Positions 6,078-47,476 of a stretch of DNA of 47,476 nucleotides are shown here, piece after piece (position 1 is the first letter of the stretch; each line of letters starts with the position of its first letter). The notes under the pieces are model-generated. The model saw nothing but the letters and a program-made list of their open reading frames with translations. It searched no databases and was not told the origin of the DNA. The stretch is from Thermoanaerobaculia bacterium (GTDB lineage Bacteria; Acidobacteriota; Thermoanaerobaculia; Multivoradales; UBA5704): contig JBJMGZ010000658.1 in NCBI GenBank assembly GCA_045807605.1, forward strand, positions 1-47,476. The letters run 5' to 3'. Made by a program: the position numbers and the translations under genes.

Positions 6078-7427
6078 TCAGGTTTGCCCGAGCGCCACCG
6101 GCGCTGCGCCGGGCGTCTCCAGGCGCTCCTCGGGCAGAGCGTCCGGCAGCTCCGCCTCGAGCCGGCGCAGGCGGGGATACCGGGAGAACACCGCGACGGT
6201 CGTCGCGACGACGAGACCGAGCACGATGAGCAGCAGGGCGATCCCGCGCCCCTTGCCCACCCCGATCAGGCGTCCGGCGCTGCCGGCGAGAGCGCCGTCC
6301 GCCGCCAGCAGCGGCTCGAAGACCCGGTCTGCCAGAGGCCCAGCCAGAAGATAGCCCAAAGGCAGGGTCGACCATGCCACCATTCTGCGCACCGCGAACA
6401 CGCGGCCCTGCAGGTCGGGCGGGACCTTGGACTGCCAGAGCGCCTGGCTCGAGCCGAGGACGATCGGGGCGGCGAACAGAAACACGAACCCCGCCGCGGC
6501 GATGAGCAGCGCGCTGGGCCGCAGCCCTCCGACCATCAGCATCACTCCCTGCAGAAACAGGAAGAGCAGGATGCCGGAGACCCGCCGCGACGGCCCTCCC
6601 CAGGCGCTCATCAGCAGGCTGCCCGCCAGCATGCCGAGGCCGGCCGCCGAGGCCACGCGGCCGAGCACGGCGGCCGAGGCGAAAGAGAGGACCATCGGGG
6701 CGAGCAGGACCTGCATCATGCCCATGCTGAGGTTGATGGCGGCGAGCAGACCCAGCAGCGACAGCAGGCCCGGGCGCTGCCGGATGTACGACCAGCCCGA
6801 CGCGGCCTCGCGCAGCAGCGAGCCGCGGCCCGCCTCGCCCTCGGCCGTGGCCGCGGCGCGCGGCACGCGCACGGAGAGGAGCGTGGCCACGGCGACGAGG
6901 AAGGTCGCGAAGTCGATGAGCACGACCCCCTGGAGCCCGATGCTCACCACCAGGGCTCCGGCGAGCACCGGGGCCGCGAGCTCGGCGACCGCATTGCCCA
7001 TCTGCGTCAGGCCGGCGGCGCGCCCGAGCTGATCCCTGGGGACGAGCAGGGTCGTGGCGGCGGTGAACGCCGGCCACTGGAGCGTGCCGAAGACCGAGCC
7101 CAGGGCCAGGAGGGGATAGATGTGCCAGAGCTCCAGCCGGCCGTGCCAGAACAGGAGCGCGAGGATCAGGGTGGTGCACCCGGCGCCCGCATCGCCCAGG
7201 ATCATCGCCTTGCGCCGGTCCCAGCGGTCCACCAGCGCGCCGGCGAACGGCGCCAGGAGGATGCCGGGCAACGTGGTCACCAGGGCGATGAGGGCGAACC
7301 GGGTCGCCGAGCCCGTGCGCTGGAAGACCCACACACCCAGGGCGAAGCCGGTGAGGCTGGAGCCCAGGGTCGAGACCACCTGGCCCGCCCAGATGGCAAG
7401 AAAGGCTGTCATGCCGCGGCCCTTCAT
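6078..7427 (-). CDS. MFS transporter, EntS/MFS_3-like exporter
   Basis: Track ORF 6078..7553. I prefer the start at MKGRGMTAFLAIWAGQVVSTLG (ATG 7425-7427), which forms an ATGA overlap with the NRPS-5 stop. The protein is hydrophobic throughout (about 12 TM segments) and carries the signature GALVDRWDRRKAMILGD typical of the enterobactin-exporter-like MFS family. Confidence 0.8.
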   Translation of the reverse strand: MKGRGMTAFLAIWAGQVVSTLGSSLTGFALGVWVFQRTGSATRFALIALVTTLPGILLAPFAGALVDRWDRRKAMILGDAGAGCTTLILALLFWHGRLELWHIYPLLALGSVFGTLQWPAFTAATTLLVPRDQLGRAAGLTQMGNAVAELAAPVLAGALVVSIGLQGVVLIDFATFLVAVATLLSVRVPRAAATAEGEAGRGSLLREAASGWSYIRQRPGLLSLLGLLAAINLSMGMMQVLLAPMVLSFASAAVLGRVASAAGLGMLAGSLLMSAWGGPSRRVSGILLFLFLQGVMLMVGGLRPSALLIAAAGFVFLFAAPIVLGSSQALWQSKVPPDLQGRVFAVRRMVAWSTLPLGYLLAGPLADRVFEPLLAADGALAGSAGRLIGVGKGRGIALLLIVLGLVVATTVAVFSRYPRLRRLEAELPDALPEERLETPGAAPVALGQT

Positions 7428-10400
7428 CGCCGCTCCCCCGGAACCCGGGCGATCAGCCCGCCGAGCGCCGCGACCCGGGGCGGACGCAGCAGCGAATAGT
7501 GGTCGCCCGGCAGGATGTGGATCTCGGAGCCCGCGCCGGCCAGCTCGCGCCACGCCTCGAACCCGTCGCCGGGGTCGACGCTCTCCTCGGCGCGGATCAG
7601 GAGGGTGCGGCCGCCGTACGGGCCGGGCCGGTAGCCCTGCAGGGCGCGGCGGTTGGCGCGGAACAGGTCGAACAGACCTTCCACCGGCAGCGCCGAGCCG
7701 TCCAGGCCGGAGAGCGCCGCCTGGTCCTGGACGAACCGGGCCAGCTCGTCATCCCCGGGATCGGCTTCCCGCGGTCCGGGCGCAGCGACGTCGATCATGG
7801 CCAGCAGGGCAGCCCGCTCCCCGGCGGCCTCCAGCTGCCGCGCCATCTCGAAGGCCACCACGCCGCCCAGGGACCAGCCGGCCAGCCGGTAGGGACCCGC
7901 GGGCTGGACCTCGCGGATGGCGCCGAGGTAGAGCGCCGCCATGGCCTCGATCGTCCAGGGCCGGGGGAGCGACTCGGGCTCCGGCGCCTGGATCGCGTGC
8001 ACGGGTCCGCCCAGGCCGCCCTCCCGCGCCAGCGGCAGGTAGCAGAAGACGCTGCCTCCAACGGGATGGATGCAGAAGAGCGGCGGATTCGAGCCGCGGG
8101 GCTCCAGCGGCACGAGCAGCGAGCGCGGCCTGTCCGCACCCCGGCGGAGGAGATCGGCCAGCCGCTCCACGGTCGAGGCCTCCAGCAGCGCGGAGAGCGG
8201 GATCCTGCGGCCGAAGTGTTGCTCGACGCTCCCCATCAGCCGCAGCGCGAGCAGCGAATGGCCGCCCAGGGCGAAGAAATCGTCGCGGATGCCGACCGGC
8301 CGCACGTCCAGGAGGTCCTCCCAGATCTGCGCCAGGCGCAGCTCGATCTCGTCGCGCGGCGGCGCCGCCTCCCGGCTGCCGCGGCCGGCCTGCCCCGGCT
8401 CCGGCAGGGCGGCGCGGTCGACCTTGCCGTTGGCGGTGAGCGGCATCCCGGGGAGCACCACGAACGCCGACGGCAACATGTACTCGGGGAGCCGCGCCTT
8501 GAGGAGCTCGCGCAGCTCGTCCGCGGAGGGGGGCGGGTCCGCCGTCAGGTAGGCGATCAGCCGCTGGTCGCGCGCGACGACCACGGCCTCCCGCACCTGC
8601 GGATGGCCCCGCAGCGCGGCCTCGACCTCGCCCGGCTCGATGCGGAAGCCGCGGACCTTCACCTGGTGGTCGATCCGGCCCAGGAACTCCAGGCGCCCGT
8701 CCGGCAGGTGGCGGACCCGGTCGCCGGTGCGGTAAAGCCGCGCGCCCGGCTCGGACCCGAAGGGATCGGGCACGAACCGTTCGGCCGTCAGACCGGGCCG
8801 ATCGAGATACCCCCGGGCCACGCCCGCGCCGCCGATCCAGAGCTCGCCGGGGACTCCGGGCGGAGCCGGATGGAAGCCGGGGCCCGCCACGTAGAGCCGC
8901 GTGTTGACGATGGGGCGGCCGATGGGCACCGCTCCCGAGGCGGGATCGTCCGGCGCCACTTCGTGGACGCAGCAGCCCACGACCGTCTCGGTCGGCCCGT
9001 ACTCGTTGATCAGGCGCGTGTCCGGCGCGTTCCGGCGCCAGAAGCCGAGGCTCTCGAAGGTCAGCAGCTCGCCACCGATGACCAGCGCGTGCGCGCGTCC
9101 CGCGCACTCCTCGGCGGGGATCAGGTGCCGCAGCGCCTCCAGGTGAGCGGGCGTGATCTTGACCAGGCTGAGCCCCTCGGCCTGGCGCAGCGCGCCGGCG
9201 AGCGCCTCCACGTCTCCCCGGTCCGGCAGCAGCGTCACCGTCCGGCCCGCGGCGAGAGGCGAGAGCAGGCTGGTGACGGTGAGGTCGAAGCCGAGGGCGG
9301 AATGGACGGGCGCTCCCGCTCCGTCCGCCACGCGGTAGGCCTCGACCGCCCAGAGCAGGTAGTTGACCAGCCCGTGGTGGGAGACCATGACCCCCTTGGG
9401 CCTGCCCGTCGAGCCCGAGGTGTAGAGGACGTAGGCCAGGTCCTCGGCATCCGCCGAGCGCGGCAGCCGGGTCTCGGGCTGGGCGTCCAGGGCATCGAGC
9501 CACTCGCGGGTGATCACGAGGGAGGTCCCCGAGTCCTCGGTCATCCAGGCCAGGCGCTCCGCCGGATGCCCCGGCTCCAGAGGCACGTAGGCCGCTCCCG
9601 CCTTGAGCGCCGCGAGGAGCGCGGCCGCCATCTCCGGCGAGCGCTCCAGGCAGAGGCCGATCCGCGATCCCGGCCCCACGCCGCGCCCGCGCAGCGCGTG
9701 CGCGATCCGGTTCGAGCGCCGGTCGAGCTCGGCGTACGTGAGCCGCTCCTCGCCGCAGACCAGGGCGAGCGCGTCCGGGGAGCGCTCGGCCGCGGCCTCG
9801 AAGAGCTGGTGGGCGCAGACGTCGGGGATGGGCCGGTCCCCGGTCCGGCTCCACTCCCGCAGGACCTGGAGCTGCTCGTCCGGCAGCGGGGACAGGAGGT
9901 TCCAGGCCGCGCCGGGATCGTCCGTCATCGCGAGCAGGGTGCGCGCGTAGAGCCCGGCGAACGTCCGCACCAGCTCCGGATGCAGCTCTCCCGCGTCGTA
10001 CTGGAGCAGCACCTGGAGGTCGGAGCTGATCGCGTTGCGGTCGCAGTGGACCGTCAGGGTGAAGCTGGTCTCGGCGAAGGTGCGGACCTCGACGACCTCC
10101 AGGTTCCGCGTGCTCTCCAGGACGTGGAAGTGGACGTAGTTGAAGTTCACCTCGAACAGGCGGCGGCCCGCGCTCCTCTGCATTTCGGCGAGAGGGAACC
10201 GCCGGTGCGGCAGCAGGTCGCGCTCGGCCTCGAACGCCGCGCGCATCAGGTCGCGCCAGCTCCCTGCCGCCAGCCGCAGGCGCAGCGGCACGGTGTTGAG
10301 GAAGAGGCCCAGCACGCGCTCTCCCCCCTCGACCTCGGGCCTGCCGTTCGTCACCAGCCCGGTGGTCACGTCCGCATCGCCCGCGAGCAGCTCCAGGACG

Positions 10401-13400
10401 CGCAGATGGGCCGCCAGCAGCACGCTCTTGAACGGCACGCCCGCGCCGTCCGCGAGCCGGCCGAGCGCCGCGGTCGTCCCGGCCGTCAGAGAGACGGGGG
10501 CCGACCGGATGCGCTGCTCCGGCACCGGCAGCCGTCCCGGCCACCGCGGCAGCTCCTGGAATTCCTGGCCCGCGAGCCGCCCGGACCAGTAGCGGCGGCT
10601 CTCCTCGGACGCGAGCGCCCGCCGCTCCAGCGCCACGAAGTCGCGGAACGCGACCGGGGGAGGAGGCGGCAGGGTCTCGTCGAAGTACAGCGCGAACAGG
10701 TCGGAGAGCAGCGAGGCGAAGCTCCAGCCGTCCACGATCGCGTGGTGCTCGGTGACCCCGAGCTCGCAGGTGTCGTCGGTCAGGAGGTGGGCCCAGAACC
10801 GGAGGAGAGGGGGGCGGCTCCAGTCGAAGCGCCGCGACCGCTCGGCTGCGAAGCGCTCCGCCGTCACCCGCTCCCGCTCCTCCGGCGGGAGCGCGCGGAG
10901 GTCCGCGAACTCCAGGGGGATCCGCGCCTCCCGGTGCACGAGCTGCAGGGGCTCGCCGTACCGCGCCCCGTCGAAGGAGGTCCGCAGCACGGCATGGCGC
11001 GCGGCGAGGCGCTCCAGGGCGCGGGAAAGCCCGGCGGGGTCGAGGGCGCCGCGCAGCGTGAAGCTGCTCACGTTGTGGTAGGGGATCGAGCCCGCGCCGC
11101 TCTCGCCGTGGAAGAGCATGCCGAGCTGGAGCAGCGAGAGCGGATAGGCGTCCTCCAGGCCCTCGGGCAGGCGCTCCCGGTCCGCGGGCGCAACCAGGGC
11201 GAACGGCTCGAGCGCCTCCGTCTCCTCGCCGTCGCGCCGCGCGGCCTGCGCCAGCTCTTCGAGCGTCTGGTAGCGGAAGAGATCCTGGAGCTCGAAGTGC
11301 AGGCCGCGCTCGGCCGCGAGCGAGCGCACCCGGATGCTGAGGATCGAGTCGCCGCCGAGCGCGAAGAAGTTGTCGCCGACCCCGACCTCGTCCAGCCCGA
11401 GGACGCGCGACCAGACCTCGGCGAGCGCCCGTTCCTCGGGTGTCCGCGGGAGGACGAGCTCCCCCGCCAGGGTGGAGCGCTCGCGCTCCGGGGCGGGCAG
11501 GGCGGCGCGGTCGATCTTGCCGTGGGCCGTCAGGGGGAGCGCCGCGAGCGGCACGAAGGCGGCCGGCAGCATGTGCTCGGGCAGCCGCCGGCGCAGGAAC
11601 GCGCGCAGCTCCTCGATCCCCGGCAGCGGCTCCGCTCCGGCCACGAGATAGGCGACCAGGCGCCGCTCCCCGCCCTCTTCGTCGCGATCCTTGCGGGCCA
11701 GCACCACCGCCTGCCGCACCGCCGGGTGCTCGCCCAGGGCGGTCTCGATCTCCCCCAGCTCGATGCGGAAGCCGCGGATCTTGACCTGATGGTCGATCCG
11801 CCCCAGGTACTCCAGGTCGCCGTTCGGCAGGTAGCGCGCGAGGTCGCCCGAGCGGTAGAGGCGCCCCCCTGGCTCGCGCCCGAACGGATCGGGCACGAAG
11901 CGCTGCGCGGTCAGCTCGGGCCGGCCGAGATAGCCCCGGGCCACCCCGGCCCCGCCGACGTACATCTCGCCGGCGACGCCGGTCGGCGCGGGCTCCTGGT
12001 TGCGGTCCAGGACCGCCAGGGAGAGGTCGGGCAGCGCCATGCCGATCATGCTCGCCGCGCTCAGGTCGGACGCGCCGACCGGGCGCCAGGTCACGTGCAC
12101 GGTCGTCTCGGTGATGCCGTACATGTTGACCAGCCGCGGCAGCCGGTCGCCATGGCGCTCGAACCAGGGCGCGAGGCTCTGGAGGTCGAGCGCCTCGCCG
12201 CCGAAGACCACGTAGCGCAGCGCGATCCCCTCCCCCCCCGCCCCGGCATCCGCCTCGATGAGCTGGCGGAAGGCCGACGGCGTCTGGTTGAGCACGGTCA
12301 CCCGCTCGCGCGCCAGCAGCTCGCGGAACGCCGACGGGGAGCGGCTCACGAAGTAGGGGACGACCACGAGCGTGCCGCCGTAGAGGAGGGCTCCCCAGAT
12401 CTCCCAGACCGAGAAGTCGAAGGCATGCGAGTGGAACAGGGTCCAGACGTCGTCCGGGCCGAAGTCGAAGAGCCCCTCGGTCGTGCTGAAGAGCCGCACC
12501 ACGTTGGCGTGGCTCACCCCCACGCCCTTCGGGCGCCCCGTCGATCCCGAGGTGTAGATGATGTAGGCCAGGTTGTCCGGATCGACAAGGACCGGCGCGG
12601 CGGCGTTCTCCTCGTCCAGGGGACCGTCGAGATCGACGACCGGGACATCGCACGCCGGGAGCCTCTCCCGCAGCGAGGACTGGGTGAGCAGCACCCGGAT
12701 CCCCGAGTCCGACAGCAGGTAGCGCAGCCGCTCCTCGGGGTAGGCGGGATCGAGGGGGACGTAGGCGCCACCGGCCTTCAGGATCGCGAGGATGCCCACG
12801 ACCATCGGAATCGAGCGCTCGACGCAGAGGCCCACCCGCGCCTCGGGGCCGGCACCGGCACGCCGCAGCCTCCGAGCCCAGCGTCCGGCGAGCGCGTCGA
12901 GCCCGGCATAGGTCAGCCGCTCGCCCTCGCAGACCACCGCGATCGCGTCCGGCGTGCGCGCCGCCTGCGCCTCGAAGAGCCGGTCGAGCGTGGTTTCGAC
13001 CGGGCGCCGGGCCGCGCCGGTGTTGCGCTCGGCGATCAGGTGGTGGCGCTCCTCCGGGGAGAGGATCGGCAGGCTCCAGATCCGCCGGTCGGGATCGGTG
13101 GCCACGCCGGCGAGAAAGCGTCCGAAGTGATCGAGGAAGCGGTCTGCCGTGGCGGCGTCGAACAGGTCGGTGCTGTACTCGAGCGTCCCTTCGAGGCTCG
13201 CCTCGCCCGCGGCGAGCACCAGGGTGAGATCGAACTTGGAGGAGCTGGTGGAGGTCGCGACCGGCTCGAGCGCCAGGTCCTCCAGGGGGGCCGCGGGCCG
13301 CGGTGCATTCCCGAGAGCCAGCATCACCTGGAAGAGCGGCGTGTGCGAGAGCGTGCGCTCGATCTTCAGCTCGTCGATCAGCTTTTCGAAGGGCAGGTCC

Positions 13401-14484
13401 TGGTTCGCCTGGTCGTCGAGCAGCGTCTCGCCCGTCCGCCGCAGCGCCTCGCGGAAGACCGGGTCCCCGGACAGGTCGGAGCGCATCACGAGCGTGTTGA
13501 CGAAGAACCCGATGAGCTCCTCGGTCTCGCGGTGGCGGCGCCCCGCCACGGGCGTGCCCACGCAGACGTCCTCCTGGCCCGAGCAGCGGCAGAGCAGCGC
13601 CTGGAAGGCGGTCAGCAGCGTGGCGAAGAGCGTGGTCCCCTCGCGGCGCGACAGCTCCTGCAGGCGCTGCGCGAGGTCGGCCGGGAAGAAGAACGGCCGG
13701 CTCGCGCCGCGCGGCGACTGGACCGCGGGCCGCGGCCGGTCCGCGGGCAGCGCGAGCAGGGGCGGAGCGCCCACGAGCCGGCGGTGCCAGTGGTCGACCT
13801 GGGCGGCGAGCACCTCGCCCTGGAGCCAGCGGCGCTGCCAGTCGGCGAAGTCCGCGTACTGGATCGGCAGCTCGGGAAGCGGCGAGGGCTGGCCGCGGTG
13901 GAACGCGCGGTAGAGCACGGCCAGCTCCCGCACCAGCAGGTTGCGCGACCACTCGTCGGAGACGATGTGATGGAGCGTGACCAGGAGCACGTGGCGCTCG
14001 GCCGCCAGGCGCAGCAGCGCCGCCCGGAAGACCGGCCCCTGCGCCAGGTGGAACGGCCGCCGCGCCTCCTCGGCCACCCGGCGATCCAGCTCCTCGGGCA
14101 GTGCGCCCAGGTCGATCACCGGCAGCGGCACGGCCGCGGCCGGGGCCACGGCCTGGACCGGCCCGTCGTCATCTTCCTCGAAAGTCGAGCGCAGCACCTC
14201 GTGGCGCCGCGCCACTTCCATCAGCGCCCGGGCGAGCGCCGCCACGTCGAGCCGGCCGTCGAGCCGCAGGGCCGCGGGCACGTTGTAGGCCGGGCTCGCC
14301 GGCTCCATCTGGTGCAGGAACCAGAGGCGCTGCTGCGAGAACGAGCATGGGAAGCGGTTTCCTGCTCCGCGCAGCGGGCTCGGGGCGATCGGCGGGATGC
14401 CGGAGCCCGAGCGCTCCCGGAGCTTCTGCTGGAGAAGCTTCTGCTTCGCCGGCGAGAGGCGGCCGATGCGGTCGAGGACCTCGC

Positions 14485-14488
<4 letters not shown>
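7424..14488 (-). CDS. NRPS-5, termination protein: C-A(Thr)-T-C(DCL/dual-type)-A(Asn)-T-TE, 2354 aa
   Basis: This is the real part of track ORF 7424..17452, beginning MSEVLDRIGRLSPAKQKLLQQKLRER (ATG 14486-14488, ATGA overlap with the NRPS-4 stop). Motifs found:
- SFSQQRLWFL and HHIVSDEWS
- YTSGSTGRPKG (twice)
- FFALGGDSILS
- YPLSLLQLGMLFH and HHAIVDGWS
- FFALGGHSLLA
- TE motifs GWSLGG and PGDHYS. Confidence 0.95.
7427..8116 (-). other. Type I thioesterase domain (chain release/cyclisation)
   Basis: PLFCIHPVGGSVFCY, nucleophile elbow GWSLGG and C-terminal PGDHYSLL, located at the extreme C-terminus of the last NRPS. Confidence 0.85.
8399..9826 (-). other. A domain of NRPS-5 module 2, predicted Asn (approximate boundaries)
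   Basis: The code is D L T K V G E V G K, read from GFDLTVT / LVKITPA / LVIGGE / NEYGPTETVVG. The published Asn code is DLTKLGEVGK (9 of 10 match). Confidence 0.75.
9869..11161 (-). other. C domain of the DCL/dual-E/C clade (approximate boundaries)
   Basis: The N-terminal motif EDAYPLSLLQLGMLFH differs from the S(F/Y)AQERLWFL motif of the other eight C domains. The active site HHAIVDGWS is intact. It is preceded by the only GGDSI-type carrier in the cluster. Confidence 0.6.
11474..12991 (-). other. A domain of NRPS-5 module 1, predicted Thr (approximate boundaries)
   Basis: The ten-residue code, read by alignment to GrsA positions 235-517, is D F W N V G M V H K. It comes from FDFSVWE / VLNQTPS / VVFGGE / NMYGITETTVH. 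The published Thr code is DFWNIGMVHK (9 of 10 match). Confidence 0.8.
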
Positions 14489-20943
<6,455 letters not shown>

Positions 20944-20950
20944 CGCCCGC

Positions 20951-23380: not shown

Positions 23381-23392
23381 TGGGTCCTCCGT

Positions 23393-32500: not shown

Positions 32501-35500
32501 AGCCAGCCCCTCTGCCAGGCCGCGTAATCCGGGAACTGGATCGGCAGCTCCGGCAGGCCGGGCCGGCGGCCGGCGGCGAACGCCTCGTAGGCCGCGCTCA
32601 TCTCCCGGGTCAGGACCCAGAGCGACCACCCGTCGGAGACGATGTGATGCAGGGTGAGCACGGCCAAGTGCTCCGTGGGGGAGAGGCGCAGGAGCGTCGC
32701 CCGCAGCAGCGGCCCGGTCCGCAGATCGAAGGGCTTGCGGGCCTCCTCGTCCACGAGCCGCTCCTGCTCGGCCCGGCGCCGCGACGGGGGCAGGGCCGAG
32801 ACGTCCACCACCGGGAACGGACACGGCGCGAACGGATCGATGACCTGCAGCGGCTCGCCGTCGACGTCCAGGAAGCGGGAGCGCAGGGTCTCGTGGCGGC
32901 GCACGATCTCGTTGAGCCCCGCTTCGAGCGCCGCGACGTCGAGCCGGCCCTCCAGGCGCACGGCCGTCGCGAGGTTGAAAACGGCACTGCCGGGCTCCCA
33001 GCGGTCGAAGAACCAGACCCGCTGCTGGGAGAACGACAGGGGGATCCTCCCCTCCCGCGGCACCGGGCGCAGCGGCGGGATCTGGCGGTCGGCTCCGAGC
33101 TCGCGGCTGCGCTCGACCTCCGCGGCGAGGAGGAGGACCGTCGGCAGCTCGAAGAGCCGGCGCAGCGGCAGGTCCACGCCGCAGACCTCGCGCAGGCGCG
33201 ACGCCACGCGCGCCGTGGACAGGGAGTGCCCGCCGAGGTCGAAGAAGCTGTCCTCGACGCCGATCCGCGAGATCCCCAGGACGTCGGACCAGATCCCGGC
33301 GATCAGCTGCTCCATGGGCGTGCGCGGCGGCGGCGAGGCGGCCGCTCCCGCGCCGGCCAGGTCGGGCGCCGGCAGCGCCGTCCGGTCGATCTTGCCGTGC
33401 GCGGTCAGCGGGATCGCGTCGAGGGTCACGAACGCCGCCGGCACCATGTGCTCGGGCAGGCGCTTGCGCAGATGGGCGCGCAGCTCCTCCGCCGACGGCG
33501 GCTCCGCCTGCGCGGGCACCAGGTAGGCGACCAGCCGCGGCTCGCCGGCCGGGCCGGGAAGGGCCAGGACGAGGGGCTGGCGGACCCCGGGATGCTCCGC
33601 CAGCGCGGCCTCGATCTCGCCCAGCTCGATGCGGAAGCCGCGGATCTTGACCTGGTGGTCGATGCGGCCCTGGTAGTCGAGATCGCCGCCCGGCAGCCGG
33701 CGGGCCAGGTCGCCCGAGCGGTAGAGACGCGCCCCCGGCACGCCTCCGAACGGATCGGGCAGGAAGCGCTGGGCCGTCAGGTCGGGCTGCCCGAGATAGC
33801 CGCGGGCGGCGCCGGCGCCGCCCACCCAGATCTCCCCGGGAACGCCGCGCGGCACGGGCTGGAAGCTGCGGTCCAGCAGGTAGAGGCTCAAGTCCGGCAG
33901 GGGCGCGCCGATGGCGCTCGCCGCACGGCCGCTCAGGACGTCCTCCGAGAGCAACCGGCGCCAGGTCACGTGCACGGTGGTCTCGGTGATGCCATACATG
34001 TTGACCAGCCGCGGCCGCTCGTCGCCGTAGCGCTCCATCCAGGGCCGCAGGCTGCGCGGGTCCAGCGCCTCGCCGCCGAAGATCACCCAGCGCAGCGCCA
34101 GCTCCCCTCCGGCCTCGCGGTCGGCCTCCATGAGCTGGAGGAAGGCCGAGGGGGTCTGGTTGAGCACCGTGACCCGCTCGCGGACCAGCAGCTCGTGGAA
34201 CGCCGACGGCGAGCGGCTCACCCAGTAGGGGACCACCACGAGCGTGCCGCCGTAGGCGAGCGCTCCCCAGATCTCCCAGACCGAGAAGTCGAACGCGTGG
34301 GAGTGGAACAGCGTCCAGACGTCCCCGGGGCCGAAGTCGAACAGGCCCTCGGTCGACCGCAGGAGACGGACGACGTTGGCGTGGGTCACGCCCACGCCCT
34401 TGGGCTTGCCCGTGGAGCCCGAGGTGTAGATGACGTAGGCCAGACTGGCGGGTCCCGCGGCTTCCGGCGCCGGACCGGGCTCGTCGCCGAAGGAGCCGTC
34501 GAGGTCGAGCACCGCGAGCACCGCGGCGGCGCAGCCGGGCAGCCGGTCGCGCAGGGCGCTCTGGGTGAGCAGGACCCGGATGCCGGAGTCCTCGAGCAGG
34601 AAGCGCAGCCGGCTCTCGGGATAGGCGGGGTCGAGAGGCACGTACGCGCCGCCCGCCTCCAGGATGCCGAGGATCCCCACGACCATGTCCACGGAGCGCT
34701 CCACGCAGAGGCCGACCCGCACCTCGGGTCCGACGCCCAGGCCGCAGAGCCGCCGGGCCAGCCGCCCCGCCCGGTTGCGCAGCTCGCCGTAGGCGACGCT
34801 CTCGCCGCCGCAGACCACGGCCGCCGCATCCGGCCGCTGCTCCGCCTGCCTGGCGAACAGCTCGTGCAGGCAGGCGTCGACCGGCAGCTCCGCGGGCGGG
34901 GCTTCGCAGAGTAGCTGGCGCCGCTCCTCCGGATCGAGCAGCGGCAGCTCCGACAGCCGGCTGCGCAGAGCGGCGGAACCGACCCCCTGGAGCAGCGACT
35001 GGAGATGGCCGGCCATGCGCGCGGCGGTGGCCGGATCGAAGAGCTCGGAGTCGTACTCCAGCCAGCCCGCCAGGAGCCCGCCGAGCTCGTGGAGGCTCAG
35101 ATTCAGATCGAACTTCGAGGTCCCGATGTCCAGCCGCTCGCGGCGCAGGGAAAGGCCGGGCAGGTCGACGGAGTCCGGGATCGCGTTCTGGAAGGCGAGC
35201 GTCACCTGGACGAGCGGGTTGTAGCTCGGGTTGCGCTCGACCTGGAGCGCCTGGACCAGGCGGTCGAACGGCAGGTCCTGGTGGGCCAGCGCCTCCAGCG
35301 TCACCCTGCGGACCGCGGACAGCAGCTCCGCCAGCGCCGGATCCCCCGGCAGGTCCACCCGCAGCGCCAGCGTGTTGACGAAGAAGCCGACGAGCCCCTC
35401 GATCTCCGTGCGGTTGCGGCCCGCGACCGGCATGCCCACGACCACGTCGTCCGCGCCCGAGTAGCAGCGCAGGAGGACCTGCCAGGCCGCCAGGAGCAGC

Positions 35501-36369: not shown

Positions 36370-36379
36370 GCCTCGTCCC

Positions 36380-39742
<3,363 letters not shown>

Positions 39743-42700
39743 TCAGGCCACTTCTTCCTCGGAGACCTCGGAGAGGCGCTGCACCAGCTCCTCGCGGGTG
39801 AGCTGCGACAGCTCGGCGAGCGCCGAGGAGAGCTCGTCCTCGTCCACCAGCGCCGCCTGCTCGCGCACGATCACGACCCCCAGCTCCGCCACGGTCGGCG
39901 CCTCGAAGAGCGCGCGCAGCGCGATCTCGACTTCAAAGGACTCGCGCACCCGCGAGATGAGCTGCGTGGCGACCAGGGAGTTGCCGCCCAGGTCGAAGAA
40001 ATTGTCGTGGATGCCCACATCGCCGACCCCCAGCATGTCCTGGTACAGCTCCACGAGCCGGATCTCCAGGTCGCTGCGCGGCGGCGCGTAGGGGGCGCGG
40101 GCCGCGGCGCGATGGCCGGCGTCCCGGCCCGATCCGAGGAGGGCGATGTGCTCGGCGGCGCGCGATCCGGTCAGGCTTCCGATGCGGTCCTGGACCGCGG
40201 CGAAGTCGCGCACCGAGACGACCCACTGCGGCTCGTCGAGCGCACTCGCCAGGAGCCGGCCGAAGGCCTCGGCCCCCTCCTGCGGGCGGATGCCCAGCGA
40301 CCAGTCGCCCCCGCGGGCCGGCGGGGCTGTTGCCGGGACGGGCGGCGCCTCCAGCCGCCGCATGGCATAGCCGCGCACGTCGAGGAGGACGCGGCCCTCG
40401 GGATCGCCGACCGTGACATCGCAGACCAGGAGGTTCGAGCCCGCGGCCTGCCCGCGCAGCCGGAAGTGGACCTGCACCCGGGCGGGCAGGCGGTCGTGGA
40501 TCGTCACCTCGTCGTAGCCGAGCGGCAGCCAGGCCGCGTCGCCCAGCACCCGGACGATGCCCGTGGCCACGTCGGCGAGCGCGGGGTGAAGCCCGAAGTG
40601 CTCCAGGTCGCCGCGGTGGTCCTCCGGCAGCTCGAGGCGGGCCCAGCCCTCCTCCTCGTTGCAACGCAGCTCGCGCAGGAGCCCGCGCCAGCGCTCGCCG
40701 AACTCGACCCACTCCGCCAGACGGTCGTCGCCGGGACGGATCTCGCGGACGGGAAAAGCCGTCGGGAAATCGTGGCGCCCGCCGGCCGCCTCCGGAAGGA
40801 GCTCCACCCTCGCCCGTGCATGCTCCTGCCACTGTCCGTTCTGCCCGCTCTCGATCACGACCTGGTCGCCGTCCGGCCGGACGCGCAGGAGCCGGACCTG
40901 GCCCGCGGGCACGGTGCAGGGCTGGGAGAAGGTCACGTTGCGCAGGCTCACCCTCTGCCCCCTCTCCTCCACGGCGCGCCGCGCCATCTCCAGATAGGCC
41001 GTGCCCGGCACGAGGCCCACGCCCTGCAGGCGGTGCTCGGCCACGAGCCAGTGGTCGGCGGGCAGGCGGGTCAGGAGAGCTCCTCCATCGGCCTGCTCCC
41101 AGTGCGGATAGACCGCCTCGGGCTCGCCGAGCAGGCTGCCGAGGCGGACCGAGACGCCGGCCTCCGCGGCCTGCCCCACCTCCAGCCAGCTGTCCCAGTT
41201 GACCGACACGATCCGGGTGCCGCCGCGGCTGGCGCTCCGCTGGGCATAGGCGTCCAGGAAGGCGTTGGCCGCGGCGTGGTCGACGAGGCCCAGGGCGCCG
41301 GTCAACGAGGTGAGCGACGAGCAGAGCAGGAGGAAGTCGAGGTCCGGGCCGCCGAACACCTCGTCGAGGATGCGGGTGCCCTCGACCTTGGGCGCCAGGA
41401 CGGCCTCGGCCATGCCGCGGCTCTTGAGCTGGATCAGGCCGCCGGGAGCCTGGCCGGCGGCATGGATCACGCCGTGGACGGCGCCGAAGCGCTCCAGGGC
41501 GGCGCGGCGGACCCCTTCCATCTCGTCGCGCCGCAGCACGTCGGCGCGGCAGACGAGCACCTCGGCGCCCGCGGCCTTCAGGGCCTCCAGCCGGCGGAGC
41601 CTCTCGCCCGTGGGCTCGGAGCGCCCGACGAGCACCAGGCGGGCGTCGAAGCGCTCGGCCAGGTAGGCCGCCAGGGTGAGGCCGATGCCCCCGGTGCCGC
41701 CGGTGATCACGTAGACGCCGTTGCGGCGCAGGCGCGTGGCTTCCGGCTCGCCCAGGCGTACGGGCTCGAACCCGCGCAGCCAGCGGCGGCGTCCGCGCAG
41801 GGCCACCGCGCTCTCCGTGCCTCCGAGCTCGGCGCGGAGCGGCGCGAGCCAGCGCTCGGCGAACGCTTCTCCCGGCCGAGGCAGGTCCACCTGCCGGCAG
41901 ACGATGCCGGGGTACTCCTGCGGGATCACGCGGCAGGGGCCGGCGAGAGCCGCCTTGGCGGGCTCCACGCCCTCCTCGCCGGTCACGTCGAAGGCGCCGC
42001 CCGAGACCGCGGTGAGCGAGAGCTCCCGCCCCTCCTGGCCGGCCACGCTCCCCCACGCCTGGGCGAGGAAGAGCAGGCTGTAGAAGCCGCGGTCGAGCGC
42101 CTCCCCGGCCGCGGGCAGGCTCCAGAGGTGGACGGCGTGCCGCGGCAGGAGGTCTTCCCCGGCAAGACTGCGCAGCAGCTCCTCATAGCCTTGCGGCCGG
42201 CCCGGATCGAGGGCGAAGCGGCGCCCGCCGAGCCGGGCGAACAGCTCGCCGGGCTCGACGGAGACGACCTCCCGCCCTTCCGCTTCCAGGGCCGCGGCCA
42301 GCCGCCGCCCCAGCCCCGTCCCATCCTCGAACACCAGCCACGGCCCGTCCGCGGCCGCCGCCGCGCCCGCGGGCCCGGCCTGCCGCCAGACCGGAACGTA
42401 GAACCAGTCGCCCGGATCGGGCTTCTTGTCCAGGGAAGCCGCCTGGGGCGCAGCTGTTTGACGCGCCACGGGATCGATCCAGTAGCGCCGGCGTTCGAAG
42501 GGGTAGGTGGGCAGCGGGATGCGCCGCCGCTCCTCGCCGGCATGGAAGCCCTGCCAGTCGGGCTGGACGCCCGCGGTCCACAGGCGGCCGAGCGCGTGGA
42601 GCAGGAAGGCCTGCGCCGGCTGCGGGTCGTACTCGTGGGGCAGCGACGGCAGCGCCACCGACCTGGAGGAGGGCTCGGCGCTCTGCAGCGCGATGCTCGA

Positions 42701-45199
42701 CAGGCTCTGCCCCGGCCCGATCTCCAGCAGGGCCCAGTCGCGGCGCCGCAAGAGCTCGGCCACGCCCTCGCCGAAGCGCACGGTGCGGCACATGTGCTCG
42801 GCCCAGTAGGCCGGATCCGTCGCCTCCCCGGCGGTGATCCAGGTGCCGGTGACGTTCGACAGGAACGGGACCGCGGGGGCCGAGAGGGCGATCCCGTGCA
42901 GCGCCGCGCGGAAGTCGGGGAGCGCCGGCTCCAGGAGCCGCGAGTGGAACGGGTGGCGCGCCCGCAGGCGCCGGTGCACGGCCTCGCGCCGCCCGAGCTC
43001 CGCTTCGAGCTCCGCCACGTCGTCCGGACCTCCCGCCACCACGCAGAAGGCCGGACCGTTGACGGCAGCCAGGCTCAGACCGCGGAAGCGCTCTCCGGCG
43101 AGCAGCGCGCGCACCTCCGGCTCGGGCAGCGAGACGGCGAGCATCGCGCCCTCGGGCCGCTGGTCGATGATGCGCGCCCGCTGCGCCACCAGCCGGAGAG
43201 CGCCCTCCAGGGAGAAGACGCCGGCCAGGCAGGCCGCCACGTACTCGCCGATCGAGTAGCCGATCATCGCGCCTGGCCGGATGCCCCAGGACATCCACAG
43301 CCGCGCCAGCGCGTGCTCGACCACGAAGAGCGCGGGATGGAGGATGCCGGTGCGGCTCAGCGGCTCCGACTGCGGATCGGCCGCGGTTTCGCCGCGGCCC
43401 AGCATGCGGCGCAGGTCGGGCGCGCCTCCGGCGGCGGCGGCGCGGCCCTCGGGATAGAGGACGTGCCGCACGTCGAGGCCGAGGAGCGGCCGGAGGATCT
43501 CCGCGCAGCGGTCCACCTCCTCGCGGTAGACCGGCTCGTGGTCGTAGAGATCGCGCCCCATCCCCACGTAGTGGTCGCCGATGCCGGAGAACAGGAAGGC
43601 GACGGCGCGGTCCGTCCCCGGCTTCACCTCGCCGGCGGCGATCCGGCGCGGCGCCGCGCCGCGCAGCAGGGCGGCGGCGTCCGCGGCATCGCGGCAGACC
43701 AGGGCCTGGCGCATCTCGAAGGCCTTGCGTCCACGCGCCAGGGTGAAGGCCGCGTCGGCGAGATCCACTCCCGTGTCGAGGCAGGCCGCGAGGTCCGCCG
43801 ACGCCTGCTCCAGGGCGCCGGCGGTGCGCGCGGAGAGCACCAGGAGCTGCCAGGGGCGGGACGGCCCCGGGGGCGGCGCCGCGGGAGCCTCCTCCAGCAC
43901 CACGTGCGCATTGGTGCCGCCGACGCCGAAGGAGCTCACGCCGGCGCGGCGCGGCATGCCGTCCGGCACCTCCCAGGGCGTGAGCTCGGCGGCGACGTAG
44001 AACGGGCTCGACTCCAGCTCGAGGAGCGGGTTCGGCTGCGTGAAGTGCAGGGTCGGCGGGATCTCGCGCCGGCCGAGGGCGAGCACGGTCTTGATCAGTC
44101 CCGAGGTGCCCGCCGCGGCGTCGAGGTGGCCGATGTTGGTCTTCAGCGAGCCCAGGGCGCAGAAGCCCCGGGCGTCGGTGGAGCGGCGGAAGGCCTGGGT
44201 CAGCGCCGTGACCTCGATCGGGTCGCCGAGCGGCGTGCCCGTGCCGTGCGCCTCGACGTAGGTGACCGTCTCCGGGTCGATCTCGCCCAGCGACTGCGCC
44301 ATGCCGATCACCTCGGCCTGCCCCTCGACGCTGGGCGCCGTGTAGTCGAGCTTGAGCGAGCCGTCGTTGTTGACCGCGAAGCCGCGGATCACGGCATGCA
44401 CCGTGTCGCCGTCGGCGCGGGCGTCCTCCAGCCGCTTGAGCACCACCACGGCCGCGCCGTCGCCCAGCACCGTGCCGCGCGCGCGGGCGTCGAAGGCGCG
44501 GCAGTGGCCGTCCGGCGCGTAGACCCCCTCCTGGTAGAGATAGCCCGAGTGATTCGGCACGGTGACCGAGACGCCGCCGGCCAGCGCCATGTCGCACTGG
44601 TAGCTCAGCAGGCTCTGGCAGGCCAGGGCGACTCCGACGAGCGACGACGAGCAGGCCGTCTGCACGTTGACCGCCGGCCCTCTCAGGTTGAGCTTGTAGG
44701 CCACGAGCGTGGCCAGGAAATCCTTGTCGTTGCGGATGCGGATCTGGAGCGGACCCACGCGCCGCACGAGCTCGTCGTTGGGCGCCAGGTTGCGCAGCAG
44801 GTAGCCCGTCAGGTTGGCGCCGGCGAAGACGCCGATGGCCCCGTCGTAGACGTCGGGGTTGCAGCCGGCGTGCTCCAGGGCGCGCCAGGCCTCCTCCAGG
44901 AAGAGGCGGTGCTGCGGGTCCATGGTCTCGGCCTCGCGGGGGGTGAAGCCGAAGAAGCCGGCGTCGAAGAGATCGACGCCGTCGAGCGCTCCCCGCGCCT
45001 TGACGTAGTTGGGGTCCTGGAGCTGCGCCGGGTCCACGCCCGCCGCCACGAGCTCGGCCTGCGAGAAGAAGCGGATCGACTCGACGCCGTCGCGCAGGTT
45101 GCGCCAGAAGGTCTCGAGGTCCGCGGCGCCCGGCAGGCGCACGCTCATGCCGACGACCGCGATCCCTTCGAGACCCTCCGGAGACTCTTCATCCACCAT
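39743..45199 (-). CDS. Type I polyketide synthase: KS-AT(malonyl-type)-KR-DH(hot-dog)-carrier, about 1818 aa
   Basis: Track ORF 39743..45205 starts on a GTG that lies inside the Shine-Dalgarno sequence. I prefer the ATG at 45197-45199, 5 nt after GGGAGG. Domain evidence:
- KS triad: TACSSS, EAHGTGT, KTNIGHL
- AT: GYSIGE and RHPFHS (HAFH-like, so malonyl)
- KR Rossmann fold: [16 protein letters not shown]
- DH: [10 protein letters not shown] (HxxxGxxxxP) and [10 protein letters not shown]
- Carrier: [14 protein letters not shown] (PCP-like). Confidence 0.9.
39866..40084 (-). other. Carrier domain of the PKS, PCP-like
   Basis: [41 protein letters not shown]. The FFxLGGxSL motif is the NRPS-type signature, not the LGxDSL ACP signature. 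Confidence 0.75.
40346..41083 (-). other. PKS-type dehydratase hot-dog domain located after the KR (approximate)
   Basis: [23 protein letters not shown] (HxxxGxxxxP) and [15 protein letters not shown]. The Asp is present, but the residue four positions downstream of it is G instead of Q/H. Confidence 0.65.
41171..42358 (-). other. KR domain including the structural subdomain (approximate); the catalytic Tyr position is His
   Basis: [26 protein letters not shown] (Lys), LCSSLTS (Ser) and [18 protein letters not shown]. In the last motif the usual Y of the YAAAN motif is H, encoded by CAC at 41276-41278. Confidence 0.75.
42701..43609 (-). other. AT domain (approximate)
   Basis: [14 protein letters not shown], active site [16 protein letters not shown] (GYSIGE rather than GHSxGE), and specificity motif RHPFHS. 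Confidence 0.75.
43886..45166 (-). other. KS domain (approximate)
   Basis: Motifs [43 protein letters not shown] and [12 protein letters not shown]. The active-site Cys is present, so this is not a KSQ loading-type KS. Confidence 0.85.
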
Positions 45200-46472
45200 G
45201 GGCACCTCCCGACTCCGTTGCGATCGAATCTCCAGCGCTCCACGGCTCCGCGCCTGCGGAGGCGCTCTCGACGAACGCGCGGTGCAGCGCGCGCACGCCC
45301 TCCTGCACTCTCGACGCGTCCACCACGAAGCTCAGCGACTCGCGGCCGGTGAAGCTGTCGAGCACCTCGATGCCGCTCTCCTCCAGCACCTCCAGCGCGT
45401 CGAGCAGCGCCGCCGGCCGCGAGCCGAGGCCGAACCCGATCAGCGACACCGCGCCCAGGCCGCCCTCCAGGGACACGGCGCCGGCGAAGCGCTCTCCGAG
45501 ATCCCTGCCGAGCTGCTCGGGGTTGGGGATCTCCAGGGCCGAGAGCAGCACGTCCACGGCCCCGCCCACGTTGTTGAGCCGGCCGGACACGAGGTCGTAG
45601 CCCGAGATGAGCTGGAAGAGCTCCCGCGCGGCGGCCGCCGGCAGCGCGCAGACCGCGCACAGGCGGAGCAGGTCGGTCCTGCCGGCCACGCCCGCGACCT
45701 CGGGCCGGCGCGGCACGAACACGGAATCCCCGGCGCCCGGGCCGCACCGGATCGCCGAGCCCGGACCGCCGCCGAACGGCGAGCCGATCACGAGCTCGAC
45801 GCCGTTGCTCCTGGCGAACTCCACGGCCTCGGCCTTCATCACCTGCGCGCCGTGCCAGGCCATCTCCTGCATCTCGTCGCCGTGCAGCTCGGCGAGCGGC
45901 TGCGCGCCGGGCACGACGCGGGGATCGGCGCTGTAGACGCTGTCCACGTCGGTGAAGATCTGGCAGGCGTCGGCGTCCAGCGCGGCGGCCAGGGCCGTGG
46001 CCGTGGTGTCCGAGCCGCCGCGGCCCAGGGTGGTGACCTCGCCCTCCGGGCTGACGCCCTGGAACCCGGTCACCACCACGACCGCGCCGCGCTCCAGCTC
46101 CGCGCGCAGCCGCGCCTTGTGGATGCGCAGGATGCGCGCGTTCGTGTGCACGTCGTTGGTGACGATGCCGCACTGGCCGCCGGTCAGCGCCACGGCCTCT
46201 TCTCCCAGGCCGCGGATCGCCATGGCGAGGAGCGCCGCCGAGGTGGTCTCGCCCGTGCTCAGCAGCAGGTCGAGCTCGCGCCGGTGGGGGTCGTCCGCCA
46301 CCTCGCGCGCCAGGGCGAGGAGCCGGTCGGTGGTGTGCCCCATGGCCGAGACCACGACCACCACGTCGCACCCCTGGCGCTTCGCCGCCACGACCCTGCC
46401 CGCCACCGCCCTGATGCGGTCGGTCGAGAGCACCGAGGTGCCGCCGTACTTCTGGACGACCAGGCGCCTCAC
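45189..46472 (-). CDS. Aspartate kinase (monofunctional, LysC-type with C-terminal ACT region), 427 aa
   Basis: This is the real part of track ORF 45189..46853. It starts at the GTG at 46470-46472 ([14 protein letters not shown]...), which overlaps the methyltransferase stop as GTGA. Motifs: [32 protein letters not shown] and [14 protein letters not shown]. Its 3' end overlaps the PKS start by 11 nt. Confidence 0.85.
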
Positions 46473-47419
46473 CGCTCCCTCCGCTGCCCGCGCAGGCGCG
46501 CGAACGCCGCCTTGCTGCGCTGCCCCCGGTCGGACGAGATCGGCGCCGCGGCGGCGCGGCCCTGGAACAGGTCCCTGCGCACGGCGTACAGGTTGTACAT
46601 GACCGATCCGCGGTAGAGCGGGTCCTGCTCGGCCCCGACGTGGAAGCCCTTCCCCTCCAGGAGCTCGGTGACGAGCGCCAGGCGGCCTTCGAAGTCGTGC
46701 ACCTCGATGGCGATCTGGCGCACCTTCGGCCAGTCCTCGGGCGCGAGCCCGCGCAGCACGTCGACCTCGCTCTTCTGCACGTCGATCTTGAGCAGGTCGA
46801 TCGTCTCCACCCCCTCCTGGCGGATGATCTCGGAGAGCGGCACGAGCGGGCATTCGAGGGTCATGGAGGTGAACCGCGCGTCGAGGAAGTCGTCGGACTT
46901 CCGCAGCACCGCGTCCACCTCGCCGTGGCCGGCCTTGAGCTGGTTTTCGAGCACGGTGCGCAGCACGTCCTTCTCCTCCTCCTCGTTGCCGTAGAAGGAC
47001 GACATGCCCGAGCTGTAGGGATAGAAGGTCAGGCTGGCCGTGCCGCGGCGGTCGGAGACGCCGCAGTTGAAGAGCCGGCAGGTCCCGTTGCCGCCGTGGC
47101 GCGCCGCGTTGTAGCGCAGGATCTCGAAGAGCGGCGGCGCGGGCTCGAACGTGTAGGTCACCAGGTCGCGGAACGTCTGGTGGAGAAAGACCGTGAACAG
47201 CCCGATGTTGCCGCCGACGTCGAACACGCAGGCGCCGTCCCAGAGCGTGATGCCGTTGGACAGGTAGACCCGGTGGTCGAAGATGTCCTCGTAGATGTGC
47301 TCCGTCTCCTTGGGGCTCTGGCAGGCGATCTCCAGGCCGTTGGGGAGCGTGCAGAAGCGCTGCACGGACGGCGGCGGCGCGGCCTTGGGATCGATGGGCG
47401 CGATCATCTCGGTCATCAT
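46469..47419 (-). CDS. FkbM-family SAM-dependent methyltransferase, 316 aa
   Basis: Track ORF 46469..47419. It has the SAM-binding motif [16 protein letters not shown] and a typical FkbM N-terminal block [37 protein letters not shown] Shine-Dalgarno sequence lies about 5 nt upstream of the ATG. The frame stays open upstream to the window edge (19 codons), so an N-terminal extension cannot be excluded. Confidence 0.75.
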
Positions 47420-47476
47420 CTCGGGTTCTCCCTGGAGGACCGGGAGCCCTCCTTGCGGCCGAGCCCGAGCGCGCGG

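Follow-up and report, generated by a model that had tools for sequence, protein, structure and literature searches.

The nearest known chemistry to the product considered here is that of the syringomycin-type 'mycins', cyclic lipodepsinonapeptides whose nine residues include Ser1, a pair of 2,4-diaminobutyrate (Dab) residues, dehydrobutyrine (Dhb) and Asp. Assembly lines that oxidise glycine have also been described: in MtaG and MelG a monooxygenase sits between motifs a4 and a5 of a Gly-specific adenylation (A) domain and hydroxylates the glycine alpha-carbon, and solanimycin SolF retains the resulting alpha-hydroxyglycine. The locus analysed here lies on a 47,476-nucleotide stretch of DNA (the window; contig JBJMGZ010000658.1, assembly GCA_045807605.1) from an organism named Thermoanaerobaculia bacterium by NCBI (Acidobacteriota). 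Ten minus-strand genes, g1 to g10, span positions 6078-47419 of the window and encode a hybrid system in which a polyketide synthase (PKS) is combined with a non-ribosomal peptide synthetase (NRPS). Read together with the genes upstream of them, they quite likely form an NRPS-PKS-NRPS line, primed by a fatty acyl-AMP ligase (FAAL), with which an uncultured Thermoanaerobaculia bacterium would make a cationic lipopeptide. Domain order, catalytic motifs, specificity codes and conservation in other contigs were established from sequence, and the chemistry was deduced from these.

The line begins beyond the edge of the window. Upstream genes were read on contig JBJMGY010000159.1 (GCA_045807685.1, 73 kb), on which the window occupies record positions 2951-50426 as an exact-sequence match. 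The gene directly upstream of g1, called g0, contributes only its 3' end to the window (47416..47476, minus strand, the last 19 codons and the stop); the remainder lies at 10001-17236 of the upstream locus (L084), and the g0 stop overlaps the g1 ATG by 4 nt. The encoded protein of 2411 amino acids (aa) has the domain order FAAL-ACP-C-A(Gly)-T (where ACP is an acyl carrier protein, C a condensation domain and T a thiolation domain), and its A domain, with the Gly code DILQMGMIWK, is interrupted twice. Its N-terminus aligns to a PvdL-type model with 614 bits, and the FAAL-ACP-C portion at this end is the lipid-loading device. Since g0 stands directly upstream, the PKS encoded by g3 is an internal extender and not a starter, and the chain that the first C domain of the window couples to Ser1 would be an acyl-Gly-ketide in place of a fatty acid.

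An earlier note on this DNA, confined to the window, had taken the PKS to be a starter and the product to be an N-acyl nonapeptide; on this model the PKS would be primed by a cellular acyl group, and the ten genes at 6078-47419 alone would make the peptide, linear or cyclic. The ten genes and nine codes behind that proposal are all real, and the nine C domains would equal nine amide bonds if the PKS product were the acyl group, but the scheme has become very improbable. The window edge cuts the gene for the FAAL-ACP-C-A-T protein, whose stop overlaps the g1 start; the basic C-terminal tail of g0 faces an acidic N-terminus on the PKS; the ketosynthase (KS) comes without a loading domain of its own; and orthologous clusters keep the cassette of g0, methyltransferase and PKS, with identities of 83% and of 56-73%. 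A simple N-acyl nonapeptide is likewise set aside, with Gly and a ketide preceding Ser1 and Thr8 probably dehydrated. The domain count holds for the window, which has nine C, nine A and nine T domains with the HHxxxD and A-domain motifs intact; its equation with nine amide bonds does not carry over to the full line, which with g0 has ten C and ten A domains and contains an A-T-C protein, g6, lacking a C domain before A5.

The two inserts of g0 suggest what its module may do. The first is a luciferase-like monooxygenase of the MupA/Atu3671 family (TIGR04020, 495 bits) placed between A4 and A5, the site used in MtaG and MelG; it is located after FDISVLE and ahead of the position-278 region. The second is an FkbM methyltransferase directly ahead of A10. 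In the proposed pathway the FAAL would load a fatty acid onto the ACP, C0 would join it to Gly, the MtaG-type monooxygenase would hydroxylate the Gly alpha-carbon, and the inserted methyltransferase would O-methylate the alpha-hydroxyl, stabilising the carbinolamide as N-acyl-alpha-methoxyglycine. Because this module is first in line and carries an O-methyltransferase-family domain, we infer, by analogy, hydroxylation followed by O-methylation to a stable product. Among the matches, other acidobacterial and metagenomic NRPSs (P0059, P0061, P0063, P0065, P0073, P0081, P0084 and P0117) pair a TauD-type hydroxylase domain with an FkbM domain embedded in the protein, and some of these also carry a luciferase-like monooxygenase. 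They suggest a recurrent in-line 'hydroxylate then O-methylate' module design, which offers indirect backing for the g0 chemistry. Metagenome contigs from JGI, ENA and NCBI yielded g0-type proteins with both inserts (54-83% identity), those from named sources being Thermoanaerobaculia or Pyrinomonadaceae.

The PKS gene g3 (39743..45199, alternative start 45205, minus strand) encodes KS-AT-psiKR-KR-DH-carrier (AT, acyltransferase; KR, ketoreductase; DH, dehydratase), an order that departs from the usual placing of DH before KR. The Cys/His/His triad of the KS is intact (TACSSS, EAHGTGT, NIGHLD), the DH carries HxxxGxxxxP, the carrier has an NRPS-like GGNS motif and the protein ends in an acidic docking tail. 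The AT active site (43243-43260) reads GYSIGE ... HPFHS and is malonyl-like; GYSIGE, in place of the usual GHSxGE, is conserved in two related metagenomic loci, L085 and L172. The KR retains the Ser and Lys of its catalytic set, and its catalytic Tyr, found as DYAAAN in the MlnE and PksJ structures, is replaced by His1310 (DHAAAN; codon 41276-41278). As His (DHAAAN or DHCAAN) stands at this place in all three orthologues, namely g3 and those of L085 (83% identical) and L172 (56% identical), the exchange is taken to be selected and not an error. The module would add one malonyl unit, and KR and DH would give an enoyl group, with a reduction state left uncertain by the His for Tyr.

Downstream of the PKS, the NRPS would add Ser, Thr, Dab, Dab, (Gly), Ser, Asp, Thr and Asn in turn. 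Module 1 is the whole of g4 (36380..39742, minus strand; C-A(Ser)-T), and g5 (26587..36369, minus strand) follows as C-A(Thr)-T-C-A(Dab)-T-C-A(Dab)-T, with its Dab A domains at 30136-31692 and 26932-28467. Next come g6 (23393..26590, minus strand; A(Gly)-T-C), g8 (14485..20943, minus strand; C-A(Ser)-T-C-A(Asp)-T) and g9 (7424..14488, minus strand), which reads C-A(Thr)-T-C_modAA-A(Asn)-T and ends in a thioesterase (TE). Stachelhaus codes were taken from an alignment of the nine A domains to GrsA-PheA, and all nine are identical to those read by hand in the earlier note: DVWHISLIDK (Ser), DFWNIGMVHK (Thr), DIWEMTLDDK (X), DIWEITADDK (X), DILQLGLIWK (Gly), DVWHISLVDK (Ser), DLTKVGHVGK (Asp), DFWNVGMVHK (Thr) and DLTKVGEVGK (Asn).

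The residue X, for which Dab had been offered as a possibility, is now well supported as Dab by three independent lines of sequence evidence. The first is code chemistry: in the X codes, Glu occupies position 278 and Asp positions 330 and 331, a pocket that would suit a short basic side chain. The second is the presence in the operon of an aspartokinase and an EctB-type transaminase. The aspartokinase, g2 (45189..46472, minus strand), is monofunctional, 427 aa long and above cut-off for TIGR00657 (308 bits); the transaminase, a class-III aminotransferase, sits upstream of g0 in the same direction and scores above cut-off both for the EctB equivalog TIGR02407 (621 bits, cut-off 552) and for NF006733 (643 bits, cut-off 438). 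The third is a code match: the near-identical DIWELTADDK occurs in a Pseudomonas kairouanensis NRPS locus with modules ...Asp-X-Gly-Ser-(hydroxy-Orn type), and the X A domains of the window are 47% and 43% identical to the A domain that bears it. We take that module order to be the KT2440-type pyoverdine order ...OHAsp-Dab-Gly-Ser-cOHOrn, which would put DIWELTADDK at the Dab position. Literature searches on Dab-like codes, and on the accession and run numbers, returned no relevant paper. Dab would then come from the in-cluster aspartokinase and transaminase, the operon apparently supplying the whole route save an aspartate-semialdehyde dehydrogenase, which would come from primary metabolism. 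Six of the nine predicted residues (two Thr, two Dab, Asp and Asn) are aspartate-derived, which would explain a dedicated aspartokinase providing precursors for Dab, Thr, Asp and Asn.

The Dab code shared with pyoverdine NRPSs, the PvdL-type score of the g0 N-terminus, a penicillin-amidase gene lying divergently upstream and a weak EntS match of the efflux pump g10 could together be read as signs of an acylated siderophore precursor akin to pyoverdine, from which the neighbouring PvdQ-like Ntn-hydrolase would remove the acyl group after export. We regard this as unlikely. The locus has no enzymes forming hydroxamate, catechol or beta-hydroxy-Asp (no hydroxylase and no formyltransferase), no D-Tyr chromophore module (no Tyr module and no epimerisation (E) domain) and, in the regions inspected, no TonB-dependent receptor, and strong iron ligands are missing among the predicted residues. 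Against the PvdQ model the acylase reaches 45 bits, where the cut-off is 950, and the orthologous locus L085 has no such gene at this place.

The line ends in g9, where the predicted lipopeptide would acquire a further modification. The second C domain of g9 (9839..11191, minus strand) is just 27-31% identical to the other nine C domains, and its top solved-structure matches are the dehydrating C_modAA domains of McyA (360 bits) and AmbE (240 bits). By the published definition (PMC11342130), the C_modAA signature is [K/R]SVLLAAH ahead of C5 together with an R(R) that opens C6. The g9 domain has KSVLLAAH before C5, RR (PHRRFP) at the start of C6 and the active-site sequence EHHAIVDGWS; heterocyclisation was considered for this divergent domain and ruled out by its HHxxxDG, which is not DxxxxD. 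Its donor is module 8, with the Thr code DFWNVGMVHK, and this signature combined with a Thr-loading donor suggests that C_modAA would dehydrate Thr8, so that residue 8 is probably Dhb. No E domains were found in the line and the other eight C domains of the window are of LCL type, from which all chiral residues are predicted to be L. The type I TE domain (7427..8188, minus strand; GWSLG; PF00975, 130 bits) would release the chain, probably by cyclisation.

The most unusual protein of the line is g6. It opens directly with its A domain, without an N-terminal C domain or docking helix, and closes with an LCL-type C domain in which HHIACDGWS is intact, while g8, the next NRPS, starts with another C domain; strict colinearity is broken, in that A5 is preceded by no C domain and T5 is separated from A6 by two. 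An E domain at the end of g6, which would have given a classical A-T-E / C layout, was rejected: the domain is 37-43% identical to LCL domains and has LCL-type motifs, its best matches are Txo1/Txo2 and TycC, and its substrate Gly is achiral. A basic N-terminal helix, LSPxKRxLLxxRL, opens g4, g5, g8 and g9, and acidic C-terminal tails close g3, g4, g5 and g8 (that of g5 being IEQIESLSEDEVDSLLE); g6 has neither. It carries instead a C-terminal extension of about 60 aa (23396..23575, minus strand) ending RRSRLSDKKLALLKQRLRK, a mimic of the N-terminal docking helix of g4, g5, g8 and g9 that is kept in all orthologues. Across the window and about 165 loci the helix motif was found 30 times, and 26 of these precede the C1 motif of a C domain within 45 aa; only three stand at the C-terminus of an open reading frame (ORF), namely in g6 and its orthologues. 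The order A-T-C / ADOP / C-A-T-C-A-T / C-A-T-..., together with the g6 tail, is conserved in three independent metagenome assemblies.

Two placements of g6 follow from these data: it is either a permuted in-line module that keeps the linear order, or a trans-acting A-T-C protein that grafts Gly onto a Dab side-chain amine. In the latter case the backbone would be an octapeptide; Gly-S-T5 would be the donor in the g6 C domain, the tail of g6 would bring the last T domain of g5 to the acceptor side, where the Dab side-chain amine would be the acceptor, and g5 would then dock g8 for elongation, leaving an N-gamma-glycyl-Dab branch. In favour of such an action in trans are docking logic and a T-to-C donor linker of canonical form. 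The geometry is that of an initiation module, the A-T-C arrangement is conserved, the C-terminal basic helix of g6 closely resembles the N-terminal helix of g8 so that the acidic tail of g5 could bind either, and the helix is otherwise almost always the N-terminal leader of a C domain. Architecture and docking logic are, however, all that this model has to draw on; gene order favours an in-line Gly, and g8 could be docked through an acidic stretch of the g6 tail, in which case g6 would serve in line as a bridging module. The branch is for these reasons put forward tentatively. It is similarly a speculative though possible reading that g6 embodies an undescribed form of NRPS wiring, in which a C-terminal docking helix recruits an upstream carrier to the acceptor side and so encodes a branch point conserved in an acidobacterial cluster family. 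We know of no characterised A-T-C-plus-tail system comparable to g6.

Such irregularities, in a source that is a metagenome-assembled genome, could also point to mis-assembly or to a decayed, non-functional cluster, given that g6 breaks colinearity and that the KR has lost its catalytic Tyr. The coding evidence makes this extremely unlikely. The window has a G+C content of 73% and long open frames on both strands; third-position G+C (GC3) is 0.94-0.97 in the minus-strand gene frames against 0.74-0.79 in the plus-strand mirror ORFs, and the plus-strand ORFs of comparable length were accordingly dismissed as GC-rich artefacts. The minus-strand ORFs run uninterrupted for up to 3260 aa at a GC3 of 0.95, all core motifs are intact, the same gene order recurs in three other independent assemblies, identical proteins were obtained in two independent sequencing runs, and the odd features themselves (the g6 tail and the KR His) are conserved.

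Much of the earlier note's description of the operon stands. The co-directional, single-strand hybrid PKS-NRPS operon of ten genes with gaps of at most 12 nt agrees with the measured junctions, which from g1 to g10 are -4, -11/-17, 0, +10, -4, +12, +7, -4 and -4 nt, a range of -17 to +12 nt. Domain calls made with Pfam, NCBIfam and phmmer domain mapping reproduce the stated content of one PKS module, nine NRPS modules, a TE, a methyltransferase, an aspartokinase and two exporters; the methyltransferase, g1 (46469..47419, minus strand), is a stand-alone FkbM-family protein of 316 aa (TIGR01444, 93 bits). The acidobacterial source is borne out by the NCBI name of the contig, and neither a scan of genome representatives with g6 nor a literature search turned up a matching characterised pathway. 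The extent of the operon is nevertheless larger: the true operon is 14 co-directional genes over about 52 kb, of which 41 kb lie inside the window. An Rfam search of the window and the upstream locus returned no RNA family, and inspection of the 130-nt gap between g10 and g11 revealed no promoter or terminator consensus.

Related clusters were seen only in uncultured metagenome contigs. The upstream genes are conserved in the 83%-identical JGI contig L085. Locus L172 (17460-24160) carries the g0-methyltransferase-PKS cassette without the aspartokinase and transaminase, and with no NRPS within the next 3 kb; the L172 PKS still ends in an acidic docking tail, and its partner may be encoded elsewhere. 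Two further loci, L086 and L088, read Dab-Dab-Gly / Asp-Ser / Thr, with Ser and Asp swapped relative to the window. In L089 the Dab-Dab pair, the g6 tail and the ADOP permease are kept, Val- and Ala-type codes follow the Dab pair, and two NRPS genes show apparent frameshifts. In GTDB species-representative genomes, a set without the source genome, the search with g6 found generic NRPS relatives and none above 52% identity; the PKS, searched against metagenome contigs, found generic PKS matches of at most 59% among the matches listed. A literature search yielded no paper on a characterised Thermoanaerobaculia NRPS product.

Export of the predicted lipopeptide would rely on an ADOP permease and a pump of the major facilitator superfamily (MFS). 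The permease, g7 (20951..23380, minus strand, 809 aa), lies between NRPS genes and is a duplicated MacB/FtsX-type protein; its ADOP assignment in the earlier note is secure, with a full-length 2x (MacB_PCD + FtsX) architecture and 798 bits for TIGR03434 against a cut-off of 622. An ADOP subfamily associated with biosynthetic gene clusters, at 45-72% identity, is set off from the general family, which reaches at most 41%. The pump, g10 (6078..7427, minus strand, 449 aa), is DHA3/Mef-like. More than 100 distinct homologues of it occur in metagenomes at 60-86% identity, the named ones being mostly Thermoanaerobaculia, and this pump family is far more widespread than the cluster itself.

An accessory block follows g10. 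It opens with g11 (3725..5947, minus strand, 740 aa) and continues with g12 (2277..3728, minus strand, about 483 aa), both secreted PQQ-repeat beta-propellers, then g13 (1189..2277, minus strand), a weak AMP-binding-like protein of 362 aa, and g14 (1..1189, minus strand), an aldehyde-dehydrogenase-family gene interrupted by the window edge; beyond the window there follow an Fe-ADH gene, a gene of no assigned family and a radical-SAM gene. An exact look-up of g11 returned no match. The block is syntenic in the closest relative (L170 11456-21335), lies in divergent orientation beside the g0-methyltransferase-PKS cassette that lacks the nonapeptide NRPS (L172 1-9666), and is absent from a more distant NRPS relative without the g0, methyltransferase and PKS context. 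From this distribution the block appears to travel with the lipid-head cassette, which suggests that a 3' boundary at g10 may be too tight; the block may make or modify the lipid. Two more secreted PQQ-repeat beta-propellers lie upstream of g0, co-directional and with 4-nt overlaps (L084 7453-10004), and the EctB-type transaminase gene is upstream of this pair. Signal peptides are present at the N-terminus of all four propellers that flank the synthetase genes, with a lipobox-like LLVSC in one of them, and the only matches were weak ones, BamB-like and 'empty quinoprotein'. The penicillin-amidase/Ntn-hydrolase gene (L084 3435-5915, minus strand) is divergent from the operon and lies upstream of it.

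Several points weigh against the FAAL-primed lipopeptide line as proposed. The product is known here from genes alone, and the scheme leaves the stand-alone methyltransferase g1 without an assigned role. O-methylation of the alpha-hydroxyglycine is deduced solely from the fact that the two inserts occur together, the Tyr-to-His change in the KR leaves an enoyl, hydroxy or keto ketide all possible, and the regiochemistry of the TE is unsettled by sequence. Colinearity is broken by g6, so the position of Gly5 stays a predicted one, and no ATPase partner for the ADOP permease was found in the visible 73 kb. Taken as a whole, this is a real and intact cluster of a conventional class, with several unusual conserved enzymatic features and no characterised relative found.

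Acidobacteriota are abundant in soil, but hardly any of the natural products predicted for them has been characterised. The present cluster is complete enough to synthesise or express, and its predicted Dab- and Dhb-containing lipopeptide recalls syringomycin, polymyxin and similar antifungals and antibiotics that act on membranes. An unusual feature would be its head group, predicted as an N-acyl-alpha-methoxyglycine extended by a ketide. The locus also raises enzymological questions about the doubly interrupted Gly A domain, the A-T-C protein with a relocated docking helix and the KR-like domain with its Tyr-to-His change. More generally, the case illustrates that structure prediction from a window-truncated operon can miss the initiation module.

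In comparison with known systems, the overall kind, a hybrid NRPS-PKS lipopeptide cluster, is well known, while the specific architecture and several of the conserved deviations are not. Like polymyxin, octapeptin and tridecaptin, the predicted product would be N-acylated, Dab-containing, NRPS-made and TE-released, with dedicated transporters. It differs from that group in having only two Dab and one Asp, and so a low net charge, in its hybrid PKS module, in its taxon and in its Dab code family, the polymyxin Dab code being DVGEISSIDK. With PvdL the line shares an N-terminal FAAL and carrier, Dab A domains of the same code family and a class-III transaminase of the PvdH/EctB type; unlike PvdL, it lacks Glu-D-Tyr-Dab chromophore modules and genes for siderophore tailoring or uptake, and has a PKS module and a nonapeptide.

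The g0 module resembles MtaG and MelG, of myxothiazol and melithiazol biosynthesis, in that a luciferase-like or flavin monooxygenase interrupts its Gly A domain between a4 and a5; the Gly A domain of SolF is also interrupted by a flavin monooxygenase, and the chemistry expected of g0, as in all three, is alpha-hydroxylation of T-bound N-acyl-Gly. The MtaG and MelG modules are terminal (C-A-MOX-A-T-TE, where MOX is the monooxygenase), and there hydroxylation triggers cleavage to a terminal amide, whereas the g0 module comes first and is followed by a PKS. Unlike MtaG and MelG, g0 also has the extra FkbM methyltransferase insert, and the oxidised Gly has to stay in the chain, as it does in SolF, probably as the O-methyl derivative. 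Like AmbE, McyA, AlbB and Crz1-C2, the g9 C_modAA domain carries the [K/R]SVLLAAH motif, RR at C6 and HHxxxDG in intact form, and its donor module loads Thr; it differs from them in belonging to an acidobacterial lipopeptide line, with a dehydration that is predicted from sequence.

The comparison with syringomycin (Pseudomonas SyrE/SyrB) was made on described features and not with the SyrE sequence. As predicted from its codes and its C_modAA domain, the present line would, like that of syringomycin, load nine residues on NRPS modules starting with Ser (the place of Gly5 being uncertain), with a Dab-Dab pair at positions 3-4 and a Thr-derived Dhb next to Asp near the C-terminus; an N-terminal lipid, TE release and a MacB-type exporter would be further points in common. 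Unlike syringomycin, the present locus has no SyrB1/B2/C chlorination genes for 4-Cl-Thr and no SyrP-type Asp hydroxylase for 3-OH-Asp, and no halogenase or TauD-type gene was found in the approximately 65 kb inspected. The order would be Asp7-Dhb8-Asn9 in place of Dhb7-OHAsp8-ClThr9, the lipid would enter through FAAL-ACP-C-Gly (with its monooxygenase and methyltransferase) and a PKS module in place of a starter C domain acting on Ser1, and the host phylum differs. Since tailoring genes, initiation logic and residue order all differ, the cluster is not a member of the syringomycin family.

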